Under the pieces are notes generated by a model. That model ran no database searches. It was not told the origin of the DNA and saw only the letters and a list, made by a program, of their open reading frames with translations. Shown here in pieces: positions 14,026-53,077 of a DNA stretch of 64,000 bases (the first letter of the stretch is position 1; each line of letters opens with the position of its first letter). The stretch is taken from the NCBI GenBank assembly GCA_018818425.1, contig JAHISB010000026.1, forward strand, positions 525 to 64,524. The letters are read 5' to 3'. The stretch comes from Patescibacteria group bacterium. GTDB lineage: Bacteria; Patescibacteriota; Patescibacteriia; UBA1558; UBA10009. The position numbers and the translations under genes are program-made.

Positions 14026-14285
14026 AGTATTTTATCTGATTTTAATCCGCCACTTGCCCGCCGAAGCTTTAGCGTAGGCGGGAAGCCGGAGTCGAAGATT
14101 CCTATCATATATATAAAATTCCAAAATACAAGAAACAAGATACAAACAAATCCCAAATTCCAAAATTCCAAATAACAAATAATATTCTAAATCCTAATTA
14201 CCGAAACTGTTGATTGTTTGGTTTATTATGTTTTGAAATTTGATGATTGAAATTTGTTTGTTACTTGGAATTTGTATCTTATTGC

Positions 14286-38126: not shown

Positions 38127-38187
38127 CCCTGCCCGCTCATTCGAGTCTGAGAGTTTATCCTTCAGAGTCGAAGACCAGCAGGCGCGG
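38127..38187. repeat. palindromic REP/MITE-like element, family D copy 1 (CCTGC..CATTCGAGTCTGA...TCAGAGTCGAAGACC.GCAGG)
   Basis: Copies at 41996-42056 and 44790-44850 (inverted); core-less 'footprint' palindromes CCTGCCTGCCGGCAGG at 6011-6031 and 51489-51505. Confidence 0.7.
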
Positions 38188-40458: not shown

Positions 40459-41525
40459 CCTACATTTTACCCTTTACCCTCAAGCGCAACACTTGGTAAT
40501 TTAGTTGATTTAGTATAAAGCTCATTAAAAACTTCTTTTGGCGTTTTATACCCAAGTTTTTTTCTAGGCGTATTATTCATCATTTCAATAATAGCAGAAA
40601 TTTGTTCCTGTGAGTAATTAGCGAGCGAAGCTCGCTTGGGAATAAAGCGCCGCAGGCGGCCAAAAGTATTTTCAATAATCGGTTTTTCCCATGAGGAATA
40701 CGGATGGCAGAAAAAGGTTTCAACATTTAGTTTTTCATACTTAGCGTTTTCCACGCCATTATCAAGTGTCATTGATTTAACTATTTTCTGATGCGGACTC
40801 AAAACATCTTTCAGTCCGTCCATAGAATATTTCAATCTGGCTGCCTTGAGCCCCGGTAGAAAAAGGGATTTCCGCTCTACTGCTCCAACGAATGTCTCCT
40901 GCTCGTATTTCGGTCGTCCCAGAGTATCGCCTTCAAAATCGCCAAAACGTTTCTGCTCGGCGACTATATCAGGGCGAAAATCAATAAATACGCGGTTAGG
41001 AATGATAGTTTTAGCAATTTTGATTGTTTGTCTCTTCTTTGGATGATAACGTTGATGCGGCAGATATTTACATAAATACTGACCACGGCTGGAATAGCAG
41101 AATTTATAAACGCTTTTAGCCGAGATAACAGCTTGGCCGTTATTAAGATAAGCGATGCGGCCGGCAACTTCCTCCGGCGACCAATTAGCCATCAATCCGA
41201 CAGCCACTTTAATTTCCAGGTTCGGATTATCGACAATTTTCATTCCCTGGTATTTTGACATTCTGCGTTTCAATCGAGCCTTGGTTTGCGCTTTGCGCGG
41301 GTCATAGGCGTCCCTCGCGCTATTAGTCTTGATTTCTCTGCTTACCGAAGAGTGGTTCTTCCCAATAGCTCTTGCTATATCCCGATGGGAATAACCTTTC
41401 TTCAGTAGGATGGAGATTTCATCTCGATCCGACTGTTTGAAGTGTTGATAACTCATAGTATTTTATTAATTGGTTTTGCCAATTATACTATACCTGAGTG
41501 TTGCACTTCAAAGGTAAATTTACGG
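40459..41525 (-). mobile_element. IS30-family insertion sequence (about 1.07 kb) with imperfect roughly 30-bp terminal inverted repeats
   Basis: Left end ...CCTACATTTTACCCTTTACCCTCAAGCGCAACACT (40459-40493) is inverted relative to the right end AGTGTTGCACTTCAAAGGTAAATTTACGG (41497-41525). Single transposase ORF inside. Confidence 0.65.
40467..41456 (-). CDS. IS30 family transposase
   Basis: N-terminal HTH (SHRDIARAIGKNHSSVSREI), DDE catalytic region typical of IS30 (DFEGDT..., ...LDNGVENA...), 329 aa. Confidence 0.8.
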   Translation of the reverse strand: MSYQHFKQSDRDEISILLKKGYSHRDIARAIGKNHSSVSREIKTNSARDAYDPRKAQTKARLKRRMSKYQGMKIVDNPNLEIKVAVGLMANWSPEEVAGRIAYLNNGQAVISAKSVYKFCYSSRGQYLCKYLPHQRYHPKKRQTIKIAKTIIPNRVFIDFRPDIVAEQKRFGDFEGDTLGRPKYEQETFVGAVERKSLFLPGLKAARLKYSMDGLKDVLSPHQKIVKSMTLDNGVENAKYEKLNVETFFCHPYSSWEKPIIENTFGRLRRFIPKRASLANYSQEQISAIIEMMNNTPRKKLGYKTPKEVFNELYTKSTKLPSVALEGKG

Positions 41526-42083
41526 AATCCAGCATTTTTATAAAAGATATTAGACCCGGCGCCATAAACTGGCGCTAAATAAAGATGCTATTTTGGTTCT
41601 GCGTCCACGACAAGCATGGGGATTATTACCAGCGCTTTTTATCCGGCTAGACAGCTCGTCTGACTTGCTCGATACGTGCTAGTAATAATTTTCTTGGACG
41701 CAGTACCAGCATAGTGTCTTTTTAAATTTCCAAATGTTTGATATTTGTTTATTTCGCTGATAATCGCCGAGATGCGCTGAGGTACGCGGATATTCGCTCG
41801 CCTCGAGCGAAGTCGAGAGGCGAAGCGGGCTGATAATCGCTGAAAAGTTGAATAATCCATTCATCAGCGTATATCCGCGCGTATCCGCCAATGGTCAGCG
41901 CTTCTCCGCGTCTATCTGCGATTTTTTATTTTGGAATTTGTAATTTATTTGTTATTTGGAATTTGGAATTTGTTTGTAACTTGTGGGTTGCCGTGCCTGC
42001 TCATTCGAGTCTGAACCTGAGGGCTCATCCCTCAGAGTCGAAGACCGGCAGGCAGGTATCTTGTATCTTATTTTATTGATATT

Positions 42084-44167: not shown

Positions 44168-44686
44168 CTATTTATTTTCATCTTTAACTTTAATGGAAAC
44201 TGATTTAGATTTTTTGGCTTTAGGCAGGCGGATAGTAAGGACGCCGTTTTTTAAGTTAGCTTCCACTTTATCGGCTATAATTTCTGTAGGCAGGATAATA
44301 GACCTGGAAAAACCGCCCCAGTAGCATTCCTGGTAAAAATAATCATCCTCTAAAACTTCTTCTTCCACCTGTCTTTTGCCGCGGACGGTTACCATATCGT
44401 TATTAATGGAAATATCAATATCCTCGGGCTTAACGCCGGCAATGGTTGATTTAATAACAATAGCGTCTTTAGTCTGGAAAACATCAACCGAAAGCTGTCC
44501 TTCTTCGTAATCTTCGTCCAGCCACTCTTCGTCGAGCTTGGCTTCGTTATCCTGCGATTCACCGACCTGGGCAGCCACTTTTTTTTCTTGAGAACTTTCA
44601 TCATCTAGAAAAAAGTCCTCGTTATTATCAGCTTCGCTGTTTTGAGAATCCGCGTCTTTGCTTTTTTTTCTAAAAATTTTCATCAT
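44168..44686 (-). CDS. Hsp20/alpha-crystallin family small heat-shock protein
   Basis: ACD core VDVFQTKDAIVIKSTIAGVKPEDIDISINNDMVTVRGKRQ...GVLTIRLPK; acidic N-terminal tail. Confidence 0.85.
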   Translation of the reverse strand: MMKIFRKKSKDADSQNSEADNNEDFFLDDESSQEKKVAAQVGESQDNEAKLDEEWLDEDYEEGQLSVDVFQTKDAIVIKSTIAGVKPEDIDISINNDMVTVRGKRQVEEEVLEDDYFYQECYWGGFSRSIILPTEIIADKVEANLKNGVLTIRLPKAKKSKSVSIKVKDENK

Positions 44687-44971
44687 ATAATTTAAAGTTA
44701 TTACTTGCTTAAGTGTTTGTTATTATACTAAATTTTTCCTGTTTTTACAAGTTAATTTGTTGATAAGTGAAAAATGATGATCTGCGACCCCTGCCTGCCG
44801 GTCTTCGACTCTGTGGTATGAGCCCTTAGGTTCAGACGGATGAGTAGCAGATATAATCCATTTCTATAACACAAAAACAGCTCCTTTTTACAGAAGATGT
44901 TTTGGATATTAAAAAATTAGTTAGTATTTGGAAATTAGAAATTGAGATTTGGAAATTCCCCCGAAGGGACG

Positions 44972-44983
44972 TGGGGTGGCTAT
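44972..44983. repeat. 12-bp direct repeat of the tRNA-His 3' end (TGGGGTGGCTAT vs TGGGGTGGCTAC at 50842-50853): putative attL of the island
   Basis: 11/12 identical nt to the 3' terminus of tRNA-His located 5.9 kb away, in the same orientation, bracketing the helicase-nuclease island. Confidence 0.5.
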
Positions 44984-45047
44984 TCGAAATGGTTGGGAAA
45001 CTATAGCTACTATACTTATTTTACTTAAAATGCAAATAAATTATTAT

Positions 45048-45833
45048 TTAGTCCAAATTATTAGTGCCTTCTCTTTGTTTTATTAAATGATCAATTTCTC
45101 TTTCTTGCTCATTTATATTATCGATAAAATTTCCGTTATCACTTCTTTTATACTTGAAGAGATTTTTGGCAATTTTTATTAAACTTAAAGCGTTTTTTAA
45201 ATCTTCTATTGTATCTTTATCTCTAAGTAGTAAGGCTGTTGTATAAAGATTGATCCATCCTTGACCTAAAATTTTATCGGAATATTCTTTAATAACATCT
45301 TTTGCATAAATGTACATTGGTAAATCAGCTGTCATTTTATCTTCTAATTTTAAAAAGTCCCTTGGCTCTATAATAGTAGCTGACCCTTTTATATACTGGC
45401 ATCTGACATAATCTATTATTAAATCTCTAAAAAAATCATACCTGTACCAAGGTTTATATCTCTCTGAAAGATGTTTTTTTTCGTTGTGAAGCTGAGGTGT
45501 GTATCTTTTATACTTCAATTCACTTAAATCCTCTAAATGAATTGGCTTATCTTTAAGCCAAAAAAGATATACTGGAATTGGAGATCCTTCCCAATATTTT
45601 ATTGTACTCTTTTTAAGATGAGGTTCGTTTTGTGTATATTTTACCTGGACATAAAAAAGTAAATTTGTAGGATACTGATCTCTTATAAGTTCACAAATAA
45701 AATCATTTCCTATATCCATACTTCCATCTATTTTATGTACCAAACAAAATTCCGATAAAAGATATTGGACAAAAGATTCGCCAATATTTCCTTTTCTTTT
45801 TGAATCAATATATTTAGGAAGGTCTTTTTTCAT
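45048..45833 (-). CDS. DUF4365-like protein with predicted PD-(D/E)xK restriction-endonuclease-like N-terminal domain
   Basis: N-terminal GNIGESFVQYLLSEF..VHKIDGSMDIGNDFICELIRD..LLFYVQVKYT pattern (E19, D40/D44, E48, K65) fits DUF4365/PD-(D/E)xK; C-terminal half helical. AT-rich codon usage like the adjacent helicase gene. Confidence 0.5.
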   Translation of the reverse strand: MKKDLPKYIDSKRKGNIGESFVQYLLSEFCLVHKIDGSMDIGNDFICELIRDQYPTNLLFYVQVKYTQNEPHLKKSTIKYWEGSPIPVYLFWLKDKPIHLEDLSELKYKRYTPQLHNEKKHLSERYKPWYRYDFFRDLIIDYVRCQYIKGSATIIEPRDFLKLEDKMTADLPMYIYAKDVIKEYSDKILGQGWINLYTTALLLRDKDTIEDLKNALSLIKIAKNLFKYKRSDNGNFIDNINEQEREIDHLIKQREGTNNLD

Positions 45834-45894
45834 AAACTTATTTAGAGTCGGGCAGAGTGTATTTATATACCTAATCTGTGCTTATAGATATTTA

Positions 45895-48800
45895 TTATTC
45901 AAGATAAAGAGTATAGCCACTTTCTCGTAACTTTCCATCCTTAATCAGTTTTTCAATAGTTGTACTTATAATTTTAGTGTCCTCTGACCAATTCCTGTTT
46001 AAACTGAATAATCCCATAACAGCTTTAGGCAGGTGTTCTTTAGCAAAACCAAATTGGTCTTCTACGAGATATAATACCGAATTAGCAATCTCATAAGGTG
46101 AGATTTGCTCAAGGCTTCTTTGGACTTCATCCGTGGGCAATCGAAAGTCATCGGCTTCAAGACCATTAGCATATAGAAACCCTTTTTGTGTGTATATTTT
46201 ACGACCTCGCGATAACAGTTGGACTGCATTTTTTACATTACTTTTAATGTTTGAACCTGCTTTCATTACTCCACATATTTCCTTGAGGCGATTTATTAAA
46301 AGTGACTCATAAATTGGAGACTCGATCTGGACAATTTTAAAAATTAAATTAGCGAGATTTAGCTGTTGAGATTTATTTAATAGATATTTTGTGTTTGATT
46401 TTCTTGATTGTTCATACTTAATATATGGTTTACCCGAGGAGTATTGTTTATTTGGTGATAGTTCTTTTGAGTTGATTGAATCGAACGAATTATTTATATT
46501 ATCTTGCTCTTTTCGTTGAGAGGTCTTTAAGGGGGGTGCCTGAATTGATTCTATACTGGGTGATTTAAGGGCGTTATTTGCACTTTTAATTATGTTATTC
46601 AGCGTATCTTCTCTATTACGAAACCAATCGGTTGACCATACCCTATGTATTTTCCAGCCCTGGTTTTTAAGTACCTGCTCCCGTATTATATCCCTGTCTC
46701 TAGCCGTTCTAGCGCTATGATAGGTGGCTCCGTCACATTCAATACCTAATAAATAACGATCTTTGTCTCGTGTATCTCTAATTGCTAAATCGATACGATA
46801 ACCACTCGATCCAATCTGCTCATCTACAATGTATCCTCTATCTTTTAAAGCTACGGCTACTCCATCCTCAAAGTCATTTGTTTCGTAGTCTGATAATGTA
46901 ACTGGTTCGGCAGGAATGTTCGCATCACGCTCCGAATACTCTATATAGTTTTTTAACATTATGGCGCCCTTATTTCCCGGGTTGACTCCAGCCAGTTCAC
47001 GACTTTGCATACTTGTAACTAATATCGTTTGCCATTTAGCTCTAGTGACTAGAACATTTAATCTGCGCCAACCACCCTCTTTGTTTAAAGGGCCAAAATT
47101 GAAGCTTAGAGCGCCTTCCGGTGTTTTCGCGTATCCAATACTAATAATTATAGTATCTCGTTCATCACCTTGAACATTTTCAAGCGACTTTACAAAGAAA
47201 GGTTCTGCTTTATTTTTATCAAATAGTGGCGTAAGTGTAGGTTTTGCCGAAAGTAAGTCGTCTAAAGCATATTCGATAGCCTCTTTTTGCGAAGCATTCA
47301 TTGCAGCTATGCCAATTGATCTGTCAGGGAATTCATCTAATTGTTGAATAACAGTCTCTGCCACTTTTTTTGCCTCAACTTTATTTGTACGACTTTTACC
47401 TCTATCCCAAGTACCTTCTGGTGTATATATCAAATGAATACCACGACCCTTGCTTGAAGTTGTTGCAGAAGGAAAGGTAATTAAGTGGTTATCATAGAAA
47501 TAGTGATTAGAAAACTTAATTAAACGTTCATCTTTACTTCGATAGTGCCATACAATTTTTGACTCTTCAAAAATGGGTCTGACCGCGACACAATTATCGA
47601 GCAGTGATTCAAGAGGTTCATAATCATCGTAATCATCACTTTCCTCTTCTTCAAGAAAAATTGAGGAAGCCTTAAAAAACGATGTCGGAGGTAATTGTTT
47701 TTCGTCTCCTGCTACCACTACCTGTTTCGCTCGTAATATTGATGGTATTGCCTCCGCGGTCGGTAATTGTGATGCTTCATCGAAGACAACCAAGTCAAAA
47801 TTAATTGATCCCGGTTTAAGAAATGTTGAAACAGATAGTGGACTCATAAGCATACAGGGTTTTAACGCCTGTAACACTCTTGGAATTTCTGCAAATAGTT
47901 TGCGAAGAGGCTTAAAACTTTTCTTTTTTTGTAGTTCTTTTTGAAGTATTCCAATTTCGCTGTGGTTTCCAGTCGTTGAACGCGCAGTTACAACTCCGCT
48001 CGCGGGGTCAGCAGCACCAGATTGTATATTCCTTAATCTTGATTTACCAATCTCTTCTTGAAGATCTTTAAATCTAGCTATTTGTTCTTCTCGTAAGCTC
48101 CCAGCAAACTCTTTTAAGCCAGGATTTTGATCCATAATTACTTCTACCCATCGCGAATAAAACTTTTTTTCAAAGATTATTGAAGCATTTGACGAACTCA
48201 CAGAGTTGAGTGAATTTAACAGTTCACCTAAATCAGAATCTTTACATTTTGAAATTGTCGCCTGTAAGACTTCCCACTCGTGTAATTTATTAAATGAGGA
48301 GAGTATTTCTTTAATTCTAGTAATTACCTTGATTATCGTGGTATTGAATAACGGTTGCTTATTATCAGTGAAACCATCTGGCCAATGTTTTTCTATATCT
48401 TTTATAATTGAAATTAATTCTACGTCTTGAATCATTTGAGATAAGAAAAACAGCGACTTTCTTATATTGTCATCAAGTATTTGATTTTCCTTGGGTTCGT
48501 TTATGATATTTTGTAGTATGGCCTCTTTAAGTTTGATGGCGGCCTTGTATTCAATTATTTGTAGCTTTAGATCCGTTGGCTCTATTGATCTTGTAGAATA
48601 GGTATGTAAATTATTATTGTTGTTCACTAACCATTTGTCTATTCCGATAATATCTTCACAAATTTTACTATAGTTTAATAATGATGAGTAAGTTATTTTG
48701 ATTCCCGGTTTTAGACTTGTTCGAAGCGAAGAGTGCCAACGCCAATAGCTAGGTTTAAAAAACCTTGTCCATAATGAGAATTCTGATTTTAAAGATTCAA

Positions 48801-50670
48801 GTAATTTTTGTAATTCTATGGGTTCAATTTTTGCAATATTCTGGTATTCTTTTTGTAAGTTCTGTTTTTTTATTTGCTTGTTTAATGCTTCCTCAAGTAA
48901 AGACACTGCCTTATTTAATTCTTGGATATTTAGTGCGCGCCATTCTGGAGGAAGTTCCTCGGTTTGCGATAAATACGAAAATACATCTCCTAATTTTGAT
49001 AAGTTTTCAAATGTAAAACCTGGCCATTGGGATATTACCAAGTCAGCTAGTTGGTTCAATTTTAAATTAATTTCTATATATTTTTCAAGGATATTTTTAA
49101 GTCCTCGTTTCAATATATCTACAGAAAGTTGAGTTTTAGAATCCCGCATAAATCCTCTCCAAGGATGTTTTTTTCGGGAATCAAAAACTGTCGATTGTGA
49201 CTCAAGACTCCTTAGTAGTTCTAGCTTTTTCTCAAGTTGCTCCTTGCTTACTCGTGTGACATCTGCCCAAGGTAGATCAAAATCAAGATCTCTATAACTA
49301 TGGTATTTTTCGATTAAACCTATAGCATTATAAATTGTTTTACCTAGAGGGTCTTTTTTGGAATGAATTTCTTTGACGTAATTATTAAGATTATTTCTAA
49401 TTTTTATAAGCTCCTCCAACTCGTCATTAAACGTATCACTGGTTCTTGTCACAGGTGATTCAATTGTTTTTTTTAATTCATCAATAATTTTTGTTTTTCC
49501 AGCCTTTGTACTATGTGCCTCTAGGCAAAAGCGACCCAGCCCAAGTTTTACTAATCTATCATAGACTACATCTAATGCAGCCATTTTTGCGCTGACAAAT
49601 AATACCTTTTTGCCTTTTCCTAAAGTATCAGCAATCAAATTAGAAATAGTTTGACTTTTTCCCGTACCAGGAGGGCCGTGAACTACTAAGTTTCTTTCTG
49701 CTGTAGCAATTGTTAATGCGTGTAATTGACTTGCGTCTGCGGGTAGAACTGGAATGGGCACGGTTTCTGGAGTTTCCATTTCGTCTAAATCCTCCCCTAA
49801 AGCTTCTGATGTTTCAGATTCTTTGTTTGCGTTCGCAAAGGCTGCAACAATTTTATTATTATAAGCTTCTTCAATCATATTTCCTAAATCAGTGTAGATA
49901 ACAAGTGATTCAAATGAGAATGTGCTTAGCCAAGTATTGTCTACTACTCGCCAGTTTTGCTCTGATGTCTTTTTTTGTACGGCGTCTAAAAATTGTTTAA
50001 GTGATTCTTGATTGGGCTCATCTATAAATTCAGGATCTATAAATTCAGGTAGGTTTACGTGATGTCTCTCTCGTAAATAAAGTTTTAATGCTGGATTAAC
50101 TTGTAGTTCCTCGTCAGACATTTTTAAAAGCATATGTGAATTGGAGCCTCGATTTTCCAATTGACAGGGAACTAATAGTAATGGTGAGGATGATTCGCCT
50201 AAAATTGGATCATCCCATTCTAAAAGGCCAAACGTTAAGTGTAATGTAGTTACACCCCTTTCTTCTAGTGTTGTTCTGCCATTATCATAAATTCGTCTCA
50301 TTATTCTGAATAAGTCTTTGGGTTCGGATTTAAATTCAATATCACCCGGCTTAACAATGTATTCGGGTTCCTCATCTTCTTCTAAGAGTTTATTTTGGTT
50401 TAACTCTTCATCCTTTCTTTTTCTTTTATTCTTTCTTTTTACAATTGGCATTTTGAGCGAGTGGGCATCTATAGCTATTGAGCTAAACAATTCTCCCGTT
50501 TCGGGCTTAATGGTAAGTAGTTTACTGACTCTGGATCGGTTTATTCCAAGCAATGGATTGCCCTTACTCAAATCTAATAAACGTTCGCGCCATTTTTTTA
50601 TCTGGGCATCTATACGTTCTATGTTTATTGTAGATTTATTTGTTGTATCCACTTTTTTTGTATATATCAT
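45895..50670 (-). CDS. 1591-aa multidomain helicase-nuclease: DUF4011 N-domain, SF1B Upf1/Dna2-like helicase (AAA_11/AAA_12), Vsr/DUF559-like PD-(D/E)xK endonuclease domain, DUF3320 C-domain
   Basis: Walker A VHGPPGTGKSQTISN, motif II VVFDEASQLP, motif V/VI QGDERDTIIIS and VLVTRAK. Nuclease block YRIDLAIRD...LLGIECDGATYHSARTARDRDIIREQVLKNQGWKIHRVWSTDWFRN (DUF559/Vsr-like). AT-rich relative to flanking genes. Confidence 0.85.
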   Translation of the reverse strand: MIYTKKVDTTNKSTINIERIDAQIKKWRERLLDLSKGNPLLGINRSRVSKLLTIKPETGELFSSIAIDAHSLKMPIVKRKNKRKRKDEELNQNKLLEEDEEPEYIVKPGDIEFKSEPKDLFRIMRRIYDNGRTTLEERGVTTLHLTFGLLEWDDPILGESSSPLLLVPCQLENRGSNSHMLLKMSDEELQVNPALKLYLRERHHVNLPEFIDPEFIDEPNQESLKQFLDAVQKKTSEQNWRVVDNTWLSTFSFESLVIYTDLGNMIEEAYNNKIVAAFANANKESETSEALGEDLDEMETPETVPIPVLPADASQLHALTIATAERNLVVHGPPGTGKSQTISNLIADTLGKGKKVLFVSAKMAALDVVYDRLVKLGLGRFCLEAHSTKAGKTKIIDELKKTIESPVTRTSDTFNDELEELIKIRNNLNNYVKEIHSKKDPLGKTIYNAIGLIEKYHSYRDLDFDLPWADVTRVSKEQLEKKLELLRSLESQSTVFDSRKKHPWRGFMRDSKTQLSVDILKRGLKNILEKYIEINLKLNQLADLVISQWPGFTFENLSKLGDVFSYLSQTEELPPEWRALNIQELNKAVSLLEEALNKQIKKQNLQKEYQNIAKIEPIELQKLLESLKSEFSLWTRFFKPSYWRWHSSLRTSLKPGIKITYSSLLNYSKICEDIIGIDKWLVNNNNNLHTYSTRSIEPTDLKLQIIEYKAAIKLKEAILQNIINEPKENQILDDNIRKSLFFLSQMIQDVELISIIKDIEKHWPDGFTDNKQPLFNTTIIKVITRIKEILSSFNKLHEWEVLQATISKCKDSDLGELLNSLNSVSSSNASIIFEKKFYSRWVEVIMDQNPGLKEFAGSLREEQIARFKDLQEEIGKSRLRNIQSGAADPASGVVTARSTTGNHSEIGILQKELQKKKSFKPLRKLFAEIPRVLQALKPCMLMSPLSVSTFLKPGSINFDLVVFDEASQLPTAEAIPSILRAKQVVVAGDEKQLPPTSFFKASSIFLEEEESDDYDDYEPLESLLDNCVAVRPIFEESKIVWHYRSKDERLIKFSNHYFYDNHLITFPSATTSSKGRGIHLIYTPEGTWDRGKSRTNKVEAKKVAETVIQQLDEFPDRSIGIAAMNASQKEAIEYALDDLLSAKPTLTPLFDKNKAEPFFVKSLENVQGDERDTIIISIGYAKTPEGALSFNFGPLNKEGGWRRLNVLVTRAKWQTILVTSMQSRELAGVNPGNKGAIMLKNYIEYSERDANIPAEPVTLSDYETNDFEDGVAVALKDRGYIVDEQIGSSGYRIDLAIRDTRDKDRYLLGIECDGATYHSARTARDRDIIREQVLKNQGWKIHRVWSTDWFRNREDTLNNIIKSANNALKSPSIESIQAPPLKTSQRKEQDNINNSFDSINSKELSPNKQYSSGKPYIKYEQSRKSNTKYLLNKSQQLNLANLIFKIVQIESPIYESLLINRLKEICGVMKAGSNIKSNVKNAVQLLSRGRKIYTQKGFLYANGLEADDFRLPTDEVQRSLEQISPYEIANSVLYLVEDQFGFAKEHLPKAVMGLFSLNRNWSEDTKIISTTIEKLIKDGKLRESGYTLYLE

Positions 50671-50841
50671 GAAATCTCACTAATTTTTATTTAATTGTTT
50701 CATTCCTTAATCTTACACAAAAACCACAAAGTTTGCCAACATTCCCTATATTCCCTACCTAGTACAAACTAGGATAGTGAAAACTCCAATTCTTCCCTAA
50801 CCCAAAAGCAAAAACAGACTTTTCGCCTATTCTTTGCCATA

Positions 50842-50917
50842 TGGGGTGGCTACTGGGAATCGAACCCAGGTTTCCGGGACCACAACCCGGTGCACTAACC
50901 GTTATGCTATAGCCACC
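50842..50917 (-). tRNA. tRNA-His (anticodon GTG), with encoded G-1
   Basis: rc: G-GTGGCTA..CCGGG-TTGTGGT-CCCGG..CTGGG-TTCGATT-CCCAG-TAGCCAC-C-CCA; the extra 5' G pairing with C73 is diagnostic for tRNA-His. Confidence 0.85.
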
Positions 50918-51007
50918 ACGATTAAAAAGTTACAAGATACAAATTCCAATTTCCAAACAAATTACAAATCTCAAATTTTAAATTCCAAATAACTTATTTC
51001 TGGGAAT

Positions 51008-51062
51008 TTGGTGATTTTCCGCCAAGGGGATTTGAATCCCTCGGCACGGCTCGGGACAGGCC
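51008..51062 (-). pseudogene. tRNA-like fragment (T-arm-like TTCAAAT loop and ..CACCA end) without a complete cloverleaf
   Basis: rc ...CCGAGGGATTCAAATCCCCTTGGCGGAAAATCACCA; no matching 5' acceptor strand, A53 instead of G53. Confidence 0.3.
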
Positions 51063-51084
51063 TACACATAAAAATAAAGGGATT

Positions 51085-51161
51085 TGGTGCGCCTGAGAGG
51101 AATCGAACCTCTGGCCTCAAGCTCCGGAAGCTTGCGCTCTATCCAGTTGAGCTACAGGCGC
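51085..51161 (-). tRNA. tRNA-Arg (anticodon CCG)
   Basis: rc GCGCCTG-TA-GCTC-AACTGGAT-AGAGC..CAAGC-TTCCGGA-GCTTG..AGAGG-TTCGATT-CCTCT-CAGGCGC-A-CCA. Confidence 0.85.
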
Positions 51162-51320
51162 GGGTAGGTCGAACCCCTTATAAATATTTAAACTATTAAA
51201 TCTTTATAAAAATAGATGGTTTACCATCCGTAGCGTCAACCTAGTTAAACGCCACTTGGTATATTAACGATTTTGTCCTACCTCGCCAAAACTACAAATA
51301 TTAGACACTGACGCGAAGGA

Positions 51321-51395
51321 TGGTGACCCCACGGGGAATCGAACCCCGGTTGCCAGGATGAAAACCTGGTGTCCTAACCACTAGACGATAGGGCC
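51321..51395 (-). tRNA. tRNA-Glu (anticodon TTC)
   Basis: rc GGCCCTA..GTCTAGTGGTTAGGAC..CCAGG-TTTTCAT-CCTGG..CGGGG-TTCGATT-CCCCG-TGGGGTC-A-CCA. Confidence 0.85.
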
Positions 51396-51462
51396 AAGAT
51401 TAATTTTGAATTTTGAAAATAGAATTTTGAATATGTTAATTTGCGTCAACCAGGATGCCTGC

Positions 51463-51545
51463 CCGCCTCTGGCGGGAAAACCTGGTGTCCCTGCCTGCCG
51501 GCAGGCTAACCCCTCGCCTCTGGCGGAATTAGACGATAGGGCCAT
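51463..51545 (-). pseudogene. scrambled partial copy of tRNA-Glu 5' half interrupted by a family-D palindrome footprint
   Basis: AAAACCTGGTGTCC (tRNA-Glu internal) + CCTGCCTGCCGGCAGG + ...AATTAGACGATAGGGCC (tRNA 5' end); a further 5'-end fragment AGACGATAGGGCT lies at 51645-51657 with the same upstream flank. Confidence 0.5.
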
Positions 51546-51947
51546 TTAAAATTTCCAATTACTAATTTTCAATAAATTCTCAATGTTTAAATTTTCAAAC
51601 AATTTCCAATAATCATTATTTGTGTTTGCGTCAGAGCAGAATTAGACGATAGGGCTATGATTAATTTTGAATTTTGAATTTCGATTGAGTTTTGAATGAT
51701 AAATTTTTAAATTTCCAATAACCAGTTACCAGTTACTGATTACTGGTAATAAAAAACTATAGCCAATACTAACAGAATTTTAACAAAAAGTCAACCCTTG
51801 CTCCCTACATTCTGCTCCCAAGCTTAATTAATTCAAAAGGACAACTAAGTTGAGGTAAAATAATTAAGCTTTGGATTAGAATTCGCGTTTTGACAAAATA
51901 TAATTATAGTATATACTTAGTATATAAATAGTATAACTATTAAATAT

Positions 51948-52223
51948 ATGAATTCAACTATTATTAACATCAAAACTAACCCTAAAGTTAAAAGTGAGGC
52001 CAAAAAAACAGCAGCTGATCTAGGGCTATCTTTAAGCGGAGTTTTAAACGCCTATCTTCGGCAGTTTATCAGAACCAAGTCTGTTTATTTTAGTTTGAAT
52101 GAAGAAAATCCCTCCCCTTATTTATTAGAAGCTTTAAAGGAATCGGAAAAACAGAGAAAAAAGAAGGGGGTTCACTCTTTTGATAATCCTGAAGAGGCAA
52201 TTCATTTCTTAAAAAATACATAG
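51948..52223 (+). CDS. type II antitoxin, RelB/DinJ family
   Basis: Ribbon-helix-helix N-term and DinJ-like KSEAKKTAADLGLSLSGVLNAYLRQFIRTKSV; 4 nt upstream of the toxin gene. Confidence 0.65.
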   Translation: MNSTIINIKTNPKVKSEAKKTAADLGLSLSGVLNAYLRQFIRTKSVYFSLNEENPSPYLLEALKESEKQRKKKGVHSFDNPEEAIHFLKNT

Positions 52224-52226
52224 GGC

Positions 52227-52490
52227 ATGAAGATTGAATACTCCAAACGTTTTGTTAAAGAATTCAAAAAATGTTCTCCTAAAGTTAAGCAGACTTTTAT
52301 TAAAAAACTGGAACTTTTTAGTACAGACAAAAATCATCCGCTTCTAAATAACCATAAATTATCAGGCAAGCTTAAGGATTACAGAAGTATAAATGTTGAT
52401 GGTGATTTTAGAGCTATTTTTCAAGAGTTTAATAATGGACAAACAATTTATTTTGTAATGATAGGCAGTCATAGTCAATTGTATTCATAA
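52227..52490 (+). CDS. type II toxin, RelE/ParE superfamily (YafQ-like mRNA interferase)
   Basis: 87 aa; YafQ-like blocks FKKCSPKVKQTFIKKLELF, DYRSINVDGDFRAIFQ, IYFVMIGSHSQLY. Confidence 0.65.
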   Translation: MKIEYSKRFVKEFKKCSPKVKQTFIKKLELFSTDKNHPLLNNHKLSGKLKDYRSINVDGDFRAIFQEFNNGQTIYFVMIGSHSQLYS

Positions 52491-52696
52491 CGGTTAGAAA
52501 AACCTCTCTCAATATATATTACTTAGAAAATTTAACAAAAATAAAAAGCCACTGAGCAAACCATACGGCTTATTTTTATCTCTTGAATTCTATTCCGAAG
52601 TGAAACATTGGGCGATCCTGTATTCTACTCTGTTTTTTATTTCTCAAAAAAATGCTAAAATACAGATGCTACATCTAAACGAAAGGGGGTGATTAT

Positions 52697-52888
52697 ATGA
52701 TAAATGGCAAAGTATTATTTGGCATTATAGTATTGATTGTGGGTATTTGGATACTGTTTTCTATGGACAATCCCACGGCCCGGTATTTGGGCGGCGGCAT
52801 TGTAACCGTAGTAGGTCTGGCCATGCTGATTAACGGATTTTTAAAGAAACCTCAACCGCCCCAAAATCAGCAAGGCGGGCAACAATAA
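52697..52888 (+). CDS. hypothetical small membrane protein
   Basis: 63 aa, two TM helices, RBS AAAGGGGGTG upstream, Gln/Pro-rich tail. Confidence 0.4.
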   Translation: MINGKVLFGIIVLIVGIWILFSMDNPTARYLGGGIVTVVGLAMLINGFLKKPQPPQNQQGGQQ

Positions 52889-52909
52889 TAATATTTAAAA
52901 TTTTAATAT

Positions 52910-53077
52910 ATGACTAAAAAAACCTATCCCCGGATACTCCCTTTAATGCTCGGGATCATCTGGGTGATTTTTGCCATCTGGTATTTTATAAAAGATGACC
53001 AAGTCGGCGGCTTTATCTGGCTTATAACATCTTTGGCCTGGTTTATTAACGCTCTTAGGCCGGTAAAAAATAACTGA
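52910..53077 (+). CDS. hypothetical small membrane protein (55 aa)
   Basis: MTKKTYPRILPLMLGIIWVIFAIWYF...ITSLAWFINALRPVKNN; two hydrophobic helices; below the ORF-track cutoff. Confidence 0.3.
   Translation: MTKKTYPRILPLMLGIIWVIFAIWYFIKDDQVGGFIWLITSLAWFINALRPVKNN

Follow-up and report, generated by a model that had tools for sequence, protein, structure and literature searches.

We report that the tRNA-His gene in a 64,000-nucleotide stretch of a Patescibacteria group bacterium genome (contig JAHISB010000026.1, positions 525 to 64,524; hereafter the window) is followed at its 3' end by a horizontally acquired, AT-rich segment of two genes, 44983-50841, whose far edge carries a direct repeat of the last 11 bp of the tRNA. 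We lean towards reading this segment as a mini-island in a flexible, tRNA-associated hotspot, one that a site-specific recombinase, acting in trans or since lost, would have inserted at the tRNA-His 3' end, and whose cargo would be two independent defence nuclease modules. An initial annotation of this DNA had placed a foreign segment with defence-like cargo directly downstream of the tRNA-His 3' end; its composition and its absence from related loci agree with that placement, and by its domains and catalytic motifs the cargo is of defence type. The annotation's "classical footprint" of a tRNA-targeted island stands in geometry and composition, but the repeat has only 11 bp and searches of metagenome and viral contigs returned no empty site or circular junction. 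The features that carry the argument are the following:

44972-44982, no strand: distal repeat copy, 11 bp, the proposed displaced original tRNA 3' end (right attachment-site, or attR, side)
44983-50841, no strand: AT-rich insert of about 5.86 kb, with two genes plus 64, 61 and 171 bp of non-coding DNA
45048-45833, minus strand: gene 2, a predicted 261-aa stand-alone DREN (DUF4365) PD-(D/E)xK nuclease with a helical C-terminal domain
45895-50670, minus strand: gene 1, 1591 aa, DUF4011 / superfamily 1 (SF1, Upf1/IGHMBP2-like) helicase / Vsr-MTES_1575-like nuclease / DUF3320
50671-50841, minus strand: upstream region of the helicase gene, with a promoter-like TTGGCA-18-TAAGAT at 50739-50710 (consensus match only)
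50842-50852, no strand: tRNA-proximal repeat copy TGGGGTGGCTA, reverse complement of the tRNA 3' end TAGCCAC-C-CCA
50842-50916, minus strand: intact tRNA-His(GTG) with encoded CCA (ARAGORN; Rfam tRNA model, 67.3 bits)

Read on the plus strand, 50842-50853 (TGGGGTGGCTAC) gives the tRNA-His 3' terminus in reverse complement, and TGGGGTGGCTAT stands in the same orientation at 44972-44983. This was first described as a 12-bp direct repeat of the tRNA-His terminus; its orientation and its tie to the tRNA terminus stand, but the length does not, since 11 of 11 bases are identical and the 12th is a C/T mismatch (T at 44983, C in the tRNA), with scattered matches only (15/19) past position 12. The tRNA lies on the minus strand, so that downstream means lower coordinates and the distal copy sits where integration would displace the tRNA 3' end. 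The geometry matches that of a tRNA-targeted element, with the distal copy direct and on the 3' side of the tRNA, and the insert begins at the base following the encoded CCA of the intact gene. The predicted fold of that gene is a cloverleaf (minimum free energy -32.7 kcal/mol) with an 8-bp acceptor stem that includes G-1 (position 50917) paired to C73, an extension typical of tRNA-His.

The significance of the repeat depends on how the test is framed. If one mismatch is tolerated in the 12-mer, chance alone predicts 0.29 occurrences per window, which makes for a weak test; for the exact, G+C-rich 11-mer the expectation drops to 0.01 per window. For an empirical null we used 131 tRNAs from the window and 90 loci of the Candidate Phyla Radiation (CPR), counting matches of at least 11 nt that reach to within 3 nt of the tRNA terminus and lie inside 10 kb; an equal match occurs in 1 of 332 control comparisons (upstream direct 0/110, downstream inverted 0/112, upstream inverted 1/110). 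The 11-bp repeat is real, and a chance origin is unlikely.

What the repeats enclose is foreign to the window. There are exactly two open reading frames (ORFs) between them, both on the minus strand (45895-50670, 1591 aa; 45048-45833, 261 aa), and ORF calls and composition alike bear out the initial description of two co-directional, AT-rich genes. The comparison of GC content and codon composition that had been suggested for 44984-50841 gives a clear deviation, with 34.2% GC against 41.3% in the remaining window, and with G+C at third codon positions (GC3) of 0.195 and 0.269 in the two genes against 0.448±0.046 for the 37 other window ORFs of at least 150 aa; the z-scores, -5.5 and -3.9, are the window's two lowest.

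The segment is also missing from related loci. The closest named relatives by VanW protein are Komeilibacteria, and a VanW-alignment scan with one genome per species gave 80 CPR loci, to which we added two close relatives with usable upstream sequence. Across the 80 loci an hsp20-(DUF3006)-VanW block is conserved, which in the window flanks the distal repeat:

44168-44686, minus strand: hsp20, first gene of the hsp20-DUF3006-VanW block, a host-backbone marker (Pfam; block conserved in 80 CPR loci)
44687-44971, minus strand: spacer between the distal repeat and hsp20, with TTGGAAWTT repeats, an inverted-repeat arm at 44790-44837 and a promoter-like site at 44750-44722

A presence/absence comparison of such loci had likewise been proposed at the outset, and it finds a homologue of either cargo gene near hsp20-VanW in none of the 82, all of which are distant (VanW identity at most 61%). 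In 26 of the 60 informative loci the 600 bp upstream of hsp20 include a tRNA, which is on the same strand in 19. The distal repeat stands 285 bp from the hsp20 start, inside the usual tRNA-to-hsp20 gap of the relatives (same-strand gaps mostly below 500 bp), and 44687-44971 would then be the original spacer between tRNA-His and hsp20.

The four closest genomes each have different DNA between a tRNA and hsp20, which marks this interval as a hotspot. In one (locus L002) a tRNA-Glu is followed by 3.1 kb with three ORFs of unknown function and then hsp20; in another (L125) a tRNA-Glu, 1.3 kb and then hsp20 are found; a third (L127), the nearest relative with this feature, has the Glu-Arg-His tRNA trio of the window (its positions 125-891; 78-85% DNA identity) inverted relative to hsp20, with a 257-aa ORF between and a cargo of 1.6 kb. 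The inversion in L127 shows that rearrangement beyond simple integration has acted at this locus. Scanned with PADLOC, the cargo of L002, L125 and L127 had no credible match. The orientation of tRNA-Glu beside hsp20 also varies, plus in L002 and minus in L125 and L127.

In the mechanism that we propose, tRNA-His at 50842-50916 would be the integration target, on the attL side; on integration, element DNA would complete the tRNA again, the original 3' terminus would be shifted out to 44972-44982, and the recombinase would be supplied in trans or later lost. The left flank beyond the distal copy reads CGTCCCTTCGGGGG..., and the corresponding junctions would be ...GGAAATTCCCCCGAAGGGACG/TGGGGTGGCTAC/TGGGAATCGAACC... 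for the empty site and ...CTATTCTTTGCCATA/TGGGGTGGCTA/TTCGAAATGGTTGGG... for the circle, with TTGCCATA-TGGGGTGGCTA-TTCGAAATGG as the predicted circular (attP) junction. The arrangement recalls the tycheposon-type islands of Prochlorococcus, in which tRNA-flanked hotspots of streamlined genomes collect cargo and partial tRNAs (bioRxiv 10.1101/2020.12.28.424599). Shared with tRNA islands and tycheposons are foreign cargo after a tRNA 3' end, a partial tRNA copy at the far edge, atypical composition and a small streamlined genome; in contrast to them, the present segment has two genes only, no integrase or mobility gene, and a repeat of 11 bp instead of about 40. It is an ordinary kind of tRNA-associated islet, unusual only in its tiny size, the missing integrase and the 11-bp repeat.

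Several observations weigh against integration at the tRNA. The repeat has only 11 bp and its similarity stops before the T arm; att sites in the tycheposon work are "typically around 40 nucleotides" (bioRxiv 10.1101/2020.12.28.424599), far longer than this one, and among the downstream direct matches that we found in the CPR tRNA set the window's is both the shortest and the farthest. Because the acceptor stem is self-complementary, GGTGGCTAT (44975-44983) also equals tRNA-His from G-1 to position 8, inverted, and thus has a second reading. As the initial annotation had noted, there is no integrase: neither cargo gene has a recombinase domain, no recombinase Pfam match occurs among the called genes within ±10 kb, and the two genes fill all but 296 bp, the sole room for an integrase remnant. 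The empty-site pattern CCCGAAGGGACG+TGGGGTGGCTAC had no match in metagenome contigs of the Joint Genome Institute, in an exact-match search of low power, and the predicted circular junction had none in viral contigs, in an exact-match search of limited power. An exact-protein look-up for closer strains returned, besides the source contig, only Logan SRR6514274, 100% identical over 9.3 kb, and the best non-self VanW is 68% identical and lies on a 3-kb contig; the same DNA is present in the ENA metagenome contig ERZ27247128 k141_1085570 (87.9 kb). Finally, the ancestral adjacency of tRNA-His and hsp20 is plausible and is assumed here, and in L127 the trio is inverted.

Elsewhere in CPR genomes, copies of tRNA 3' ends are common. 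Among 111 other CPR tRNAs, 13 have a direct copy of 13-33 nt of their own 3' end downstream, against 1 of 332 controls; many of the 13 are orthologous Ile/Val sites beside hsp20, and the resulting 12% is not a genome-wide rate. Most of the 13 copies lie 80-320 nt downstream. At loci L004, L005, L006, L009/L011, L010, L015, L016, L056, L064, L071, L082 and L088 the distance is 60-320 nt, and the copies, which are exact, resemble att scars left behind by elements that were very small or have been deleted. The enrichment suggests that att-type recombination is active in the clade. Another CPR tRNA-His has a 22-nt copy at +164 nt, with a hairpin of its own after each copy. In L077 (13395-16265), from a Patescibacteria metagenome-assembled genome, a 21-nt copy of the tRNA-Asp 3' end at +2.85 kb encloses a DpnI-family endonuclease and an AIPR protein without an integrase, and the congeneric L048 (13336-15394; 80-85% DNA identity to L077) has unrelated DNA after the same tRNA-Asp. 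Small integrase-less segments bounded by tRNA 3'-end repeats thus recur in CPR genomes. A further step, which we regard as a long shot, would be a class of integrase-less defence islets in Patescibacteria, of one to a few genes with short tRNA-3'-end bounds, that would be moved in trans by the recombinases of other elements in the manner of satellites; the short-range copies would be scars of excision or decay, and the His islet and the DpnI/AIPR segment occupied examples.

The alternative that survives best is turnover of the hotspot by homologous recombination in the flanks (tRNA genes, hsp20) or by homology-facilitated illegitimate or microhomology-mediated recombination, with the 11-mer as microhomology, a scar from an unrelated, older element or chance. 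We regard it as a serious competitor, though less likely than not. It would account for the different cargo and flipped tRNA orientation in the four closest genomes, for the lack of an integrase and for the shortness of the repeat, and separate acquisitions would be in keeping with the GC3 values of the two genes (0.195 and 0.269) and the independent distributions of their homologues. In Pseudomonas aeruginosa, defence hotspots that are flanked by core genes and show no mobile-element signature have been documented (PMC10250203), and the present locus shares with those of the cDHS1 type a variable segment between conserved markers with different cargo in relatives; it differs in that a tRNA whose terminus is directly repeated serves as one marker and in that the relatives' cargo is not recognisably defensive. 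What such turnover explains less well is a direct repeat anchored exactly at the tRNA terminus and at a compositional boundary, which only 1 of 332 controls equals, together with the strong enrichment of direct 3'-end copies downstream of CPR tRNAs (13/111).

The inverted match of GGTGGCTAT to G-1 through position 8 opens a second alternative, in which the left copy is an inverted fragment of the tRNA-His 5' end and leader, left by inversion or rearrangement of the trio, and the direct repeat is a by-product of the acceptor stem. In keeping with this, 24 of 27 positions at 44925-44951 agree with the tRNA-His leader (50965-50991) when the latter is reverse-complemented, the trio of L127 is inverted with respect to hsp20, and copies of the tRNA-Glu 5' end and leader are present at 51530-51565 and 51643-51678. 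However, the 27-nt leader match belongs to a dispersed simple-repeat family, TTGGAAWTT, and for this reason we give the inverted reading low weight; it also needs a 2-nt gap and has 9 contiguous matches where the 3' reading has 11, and it leaves unexplained why the copy lies exactly at the edge of the foreign segment. We judge it highly improbable. That there is no island at all, only native genes of atypical composition beside a coincidental 11-mer, fits the missing integrase, the lack of observable presence/absence polymorphism among close strains and the further low-GC patches in the window, but deserves next to no credence and is largely refuted by GC3 values 3.9 and 5.5 standard deviations below the mean, by the absence of the genes from 82 syntenic loci, by the patchy occurrence of both families in unrelated contexts, by best non-self homologues that are 55-57% identical and belong to different CPR classes, and by the improbability of the repeat.

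Other origins of the segment were tried and rejected. A transposon with an 11-bp target-site duplication was dismissed, as there is no transposase and no terminal inverted repeat at the island ends, by direct inspection or among the 25 longest inverted repeats listed; a tandem integration was dismissed because there is no internal att copy between the two cargo genes, in 45834-45894; and a phage origin was dismissed, the DUF4365 protein having no phage homologue that we could find and the helicase one partial metagenomic match at 34% identity. The island-end sequences have no homology to any of the fetched loci.

Returning to the favoured mini-island, its cargo would be two independent single-gene nuclease modules, most likely directed against phages or other invading DNA. 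Gene 1 has the Pfam domains DUF4011 (residues 30-199), AAA_11, AAA_12, MTES_1575 (MTES_1575/DUF559, 1267-1362) and DUF3320 (1438-1477), and its motifs are intact, with Walker A GPPGTGKS at 332, Walker B DEA at 964-966 and the nuclease ECDG. The PADLOC model PDC-S37 matches residues 18-1586 with 1215 bits and is covered end to end, and the closest PDB relatives by sequence are IGHMBP2, Upf1 and Dna2. From these matches gene 1 is a single-gene defence candidate of the PDC-S37 type, related to Hhe and to the anti-phage protein ProA. With these it shares the order of DUF4011, SF1 helicase and Vsr/MTES_1575-like nuclease and the occurrence as a stand-alone gene, with PDC-S37 at full length; it differs in that the Hhe profile matches only across its C-terminal third to half, in that the ProA profile matches from position 348 on and below its cut-off, and in that activity is reported only for Hhe of E. 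coli. That protein was reported active against lambda, T3, T7 and PhiV-1, with a requirement for the nuclease residue (bioRxiv 10.1101/2022.06.16.496414), and by analogy gene 1 would move along foreign or aberrant nucleic acid and cleave it.

A defence role of gene 1 has points against it too. The PADLOC library has no curated cut-off, and PDC-S37 is a candidate model and not a validated system; gene 1 scores below the cut-offs of both NCBIfam models, "anti-phage protein ProA" (1210.7 bits, cut-off 1500) and Hhe (796.2 bits, cut-off 2000). In P. aeruginosa a DUF4011 gene is a conserved core gene (PMC10250203), so that family membership alone is no proof of a defence role. We found nothing usable in the literature on PDC-S37 and ProA. 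At E <1e-30 this very large family has more than 5,800 matches, the best non-self one 55% identical. The homologues in three CPR contexts stand alone amid housekeeping genes; two of them are near tRNAs, and none is accompanied by a DUF4365 gene.

Gene 2 matches Pfam DUF4365 with a modest 31.2 bits (cut-off 24.3). An AlphaFold2 model built from 42 homologues has a mean predicted local distance difference test (pLDDT) score of 88.8, and with Foldseek its N-terminal ~118 residues match the DREN domains of SPARDA (9qcc, 9jsz; E = 7e-5, probability 1.0); the helical C-terminal half had no significant Foldseek match. Across the 42 homologues D44, E48 and Q63-V-K65 are invariant and E19 is conserved in at least 90%, a set that reads as a PD-(D/E)xK-type signature. 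In SPARDA, DREN (DUF4365) is the collateral DNase/RNase effector of short-Argonaute systems (PMC10810196, PMC12205087). Gene 2 resembles it in the DREN PD-(D/E)xK fold of its N-terminal ~118 residues and in the D...QxK-type signature; in contrast, it has no detected APAZ, its C-terminal half is helical, and it stands alone in varied defence-type neighbourhoods. No Piwi or Argonaute domain occurs among the genes within ±10 kb of gene 2 or beside its homologues. The helical C-terminal domain presumably controls or targets the nuclease.

We found 107 homologues of gene 2, 37-57% identical; all those with a named organism are CPR (Daviesbacteria, Collierbacteria, Roizmanbacteria), and the gene is usually more AT-rich than its host genome. 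Its neighbours there include restriction-modification (R-M) methylases and other DNA methylases, AAA_13, HEPN-AbiU2, AbiEii, AAA_14/DUF4143 and helicases, which by their domains form defence-island company. In L105 (644-6915) a DREN homologue lies on the same strand directly after a methyltransferase-S-HEPN(AbiU2) fusion (type I-like) and an AAA_13 ATPase, with a 3-nt gap, and in L106 (1211-5329) another lies on the same strand directly after two DNA methylases. Judged by such gene order, the DREN nuclease may be the cutting component of R-M-like systems in some genomes.

The wording of the initial annotation implied that the two genes form one system, and this we had to abandon. Homologues of genes 1 and 2 occur together in none of the 35 loci with a DUF4365 homologue and in none of the 3 contexts of helicase homologues, and a conserved two-gene system of helicase and DUF4365 protein is rejected on that count. 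With no co-occurrence elsewhere, the two cargo genes are independent modules and not a system.

On the other side of the island tRNA-His is joined by two further tRNA genes, and the three make up the Glu-Arg-His trio at 50842-51395:

51085-51161, minus strand: tRNA-Arg(CCG) (ARAGORN)
51321-51395, minus strand: tRNA-Glu(UUC) (ARAGORN)

The neighbours named at the outset, a tRNA cluster, tRNA fragments and a toxin-antitoxin pair, were all found again, as tRNA-Arg, tRNA-Glu, tRNA-Glu fragments and a RelB/YafQ pair. Upstream of tRNA-Glu, within 51440-51720, are two additional copies of its 5' end and leader, which relative to 51382-51417 are 72% (51530-51565) and 94% (51643-51678) identical. The former is part of a pseudo-tRNA-Glu (the 5' two-thirds) that is broken up by G+C-rich hairpins (CCGCCAGAGGCGG, twice, and GCCTGCCGGCAGGC). 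Such upstream 5'-end fragments are the reverse of the usual 3' att scar. Between tRNA-His and tRNA-Arg lies a T-arm/acceptor tRNA-like fragment (51017-51063) with no ARAGORN call, which is kept in L127 (about 425-495) in what looks like a fuller form (..CTCGGGACAAGCC..); probably it is a tRNA gene that degenerated long ago. The RelB / YafQ-ParE-type pair (51948-52490) lies on the opposite side of the trio in a low-GC stretch (33.8% for 52001-53000) and is probably a further mobile module within the same flexible region.

Clusters of TTGGAAWTT occur at 14116-14273, 41931-41971, 44928-44957, 50941-50988 and 51550-51718, in intergenic DNA and especially near tRNA genes; the window has 21 such sites against 7 expected. 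Akin tracts are found in other CPR genomes (L035, L036, L127) in both orientations, and one TTGGAA stands at -35-like spacing from a TTTAAT upstream of tRNA-His. The hsp20-DUF3006-VanW operon stands between the arms of an inverted repeat of 48 nt with 94% complementarity (42009-42056 and 44790-44837). Both arms have a hairpin of their own and contain the motif CCTGCCTGCCGG, and 14 nt of the repeat are found again at 38163-38176; it looks like a dispersed element akin to repetitive extragenic palindromes or miniature inverted-repeat transposable elements. Just past VanW, at 40467-41456, is the gene of a 329-aa protein whose only domain is an N-terminal HTH_38, the DNA-binding domain seen in transposases of the IS30 type; an rve/DDE domain could not be detected, and neither the 80 related loci nor L126 have a counterpart there.

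CPR bacteria, or Patescibacteria, have tiny genomes and are thought to be host-dependent, and to our knowledge the gain and upkeep of anti-phage genes in them is poorly documented. The locus is a clean example of a CPR tRNA-adjacent hotspot with two nuclease-type defence candidates and no mobility gene. It leaves current concepts unchanged; its value lies in an annotated example and in two candidate defence genes that can be tested. The stand-alone DREN (DUF4365) family, whose named members in our searches are all CPR, is a possible simpler relative of the SPARDA effector. The most interesting possibility, if true, would be that integrase-less, tRNA-repeat-bounded defence islets are general in CPR genomes.

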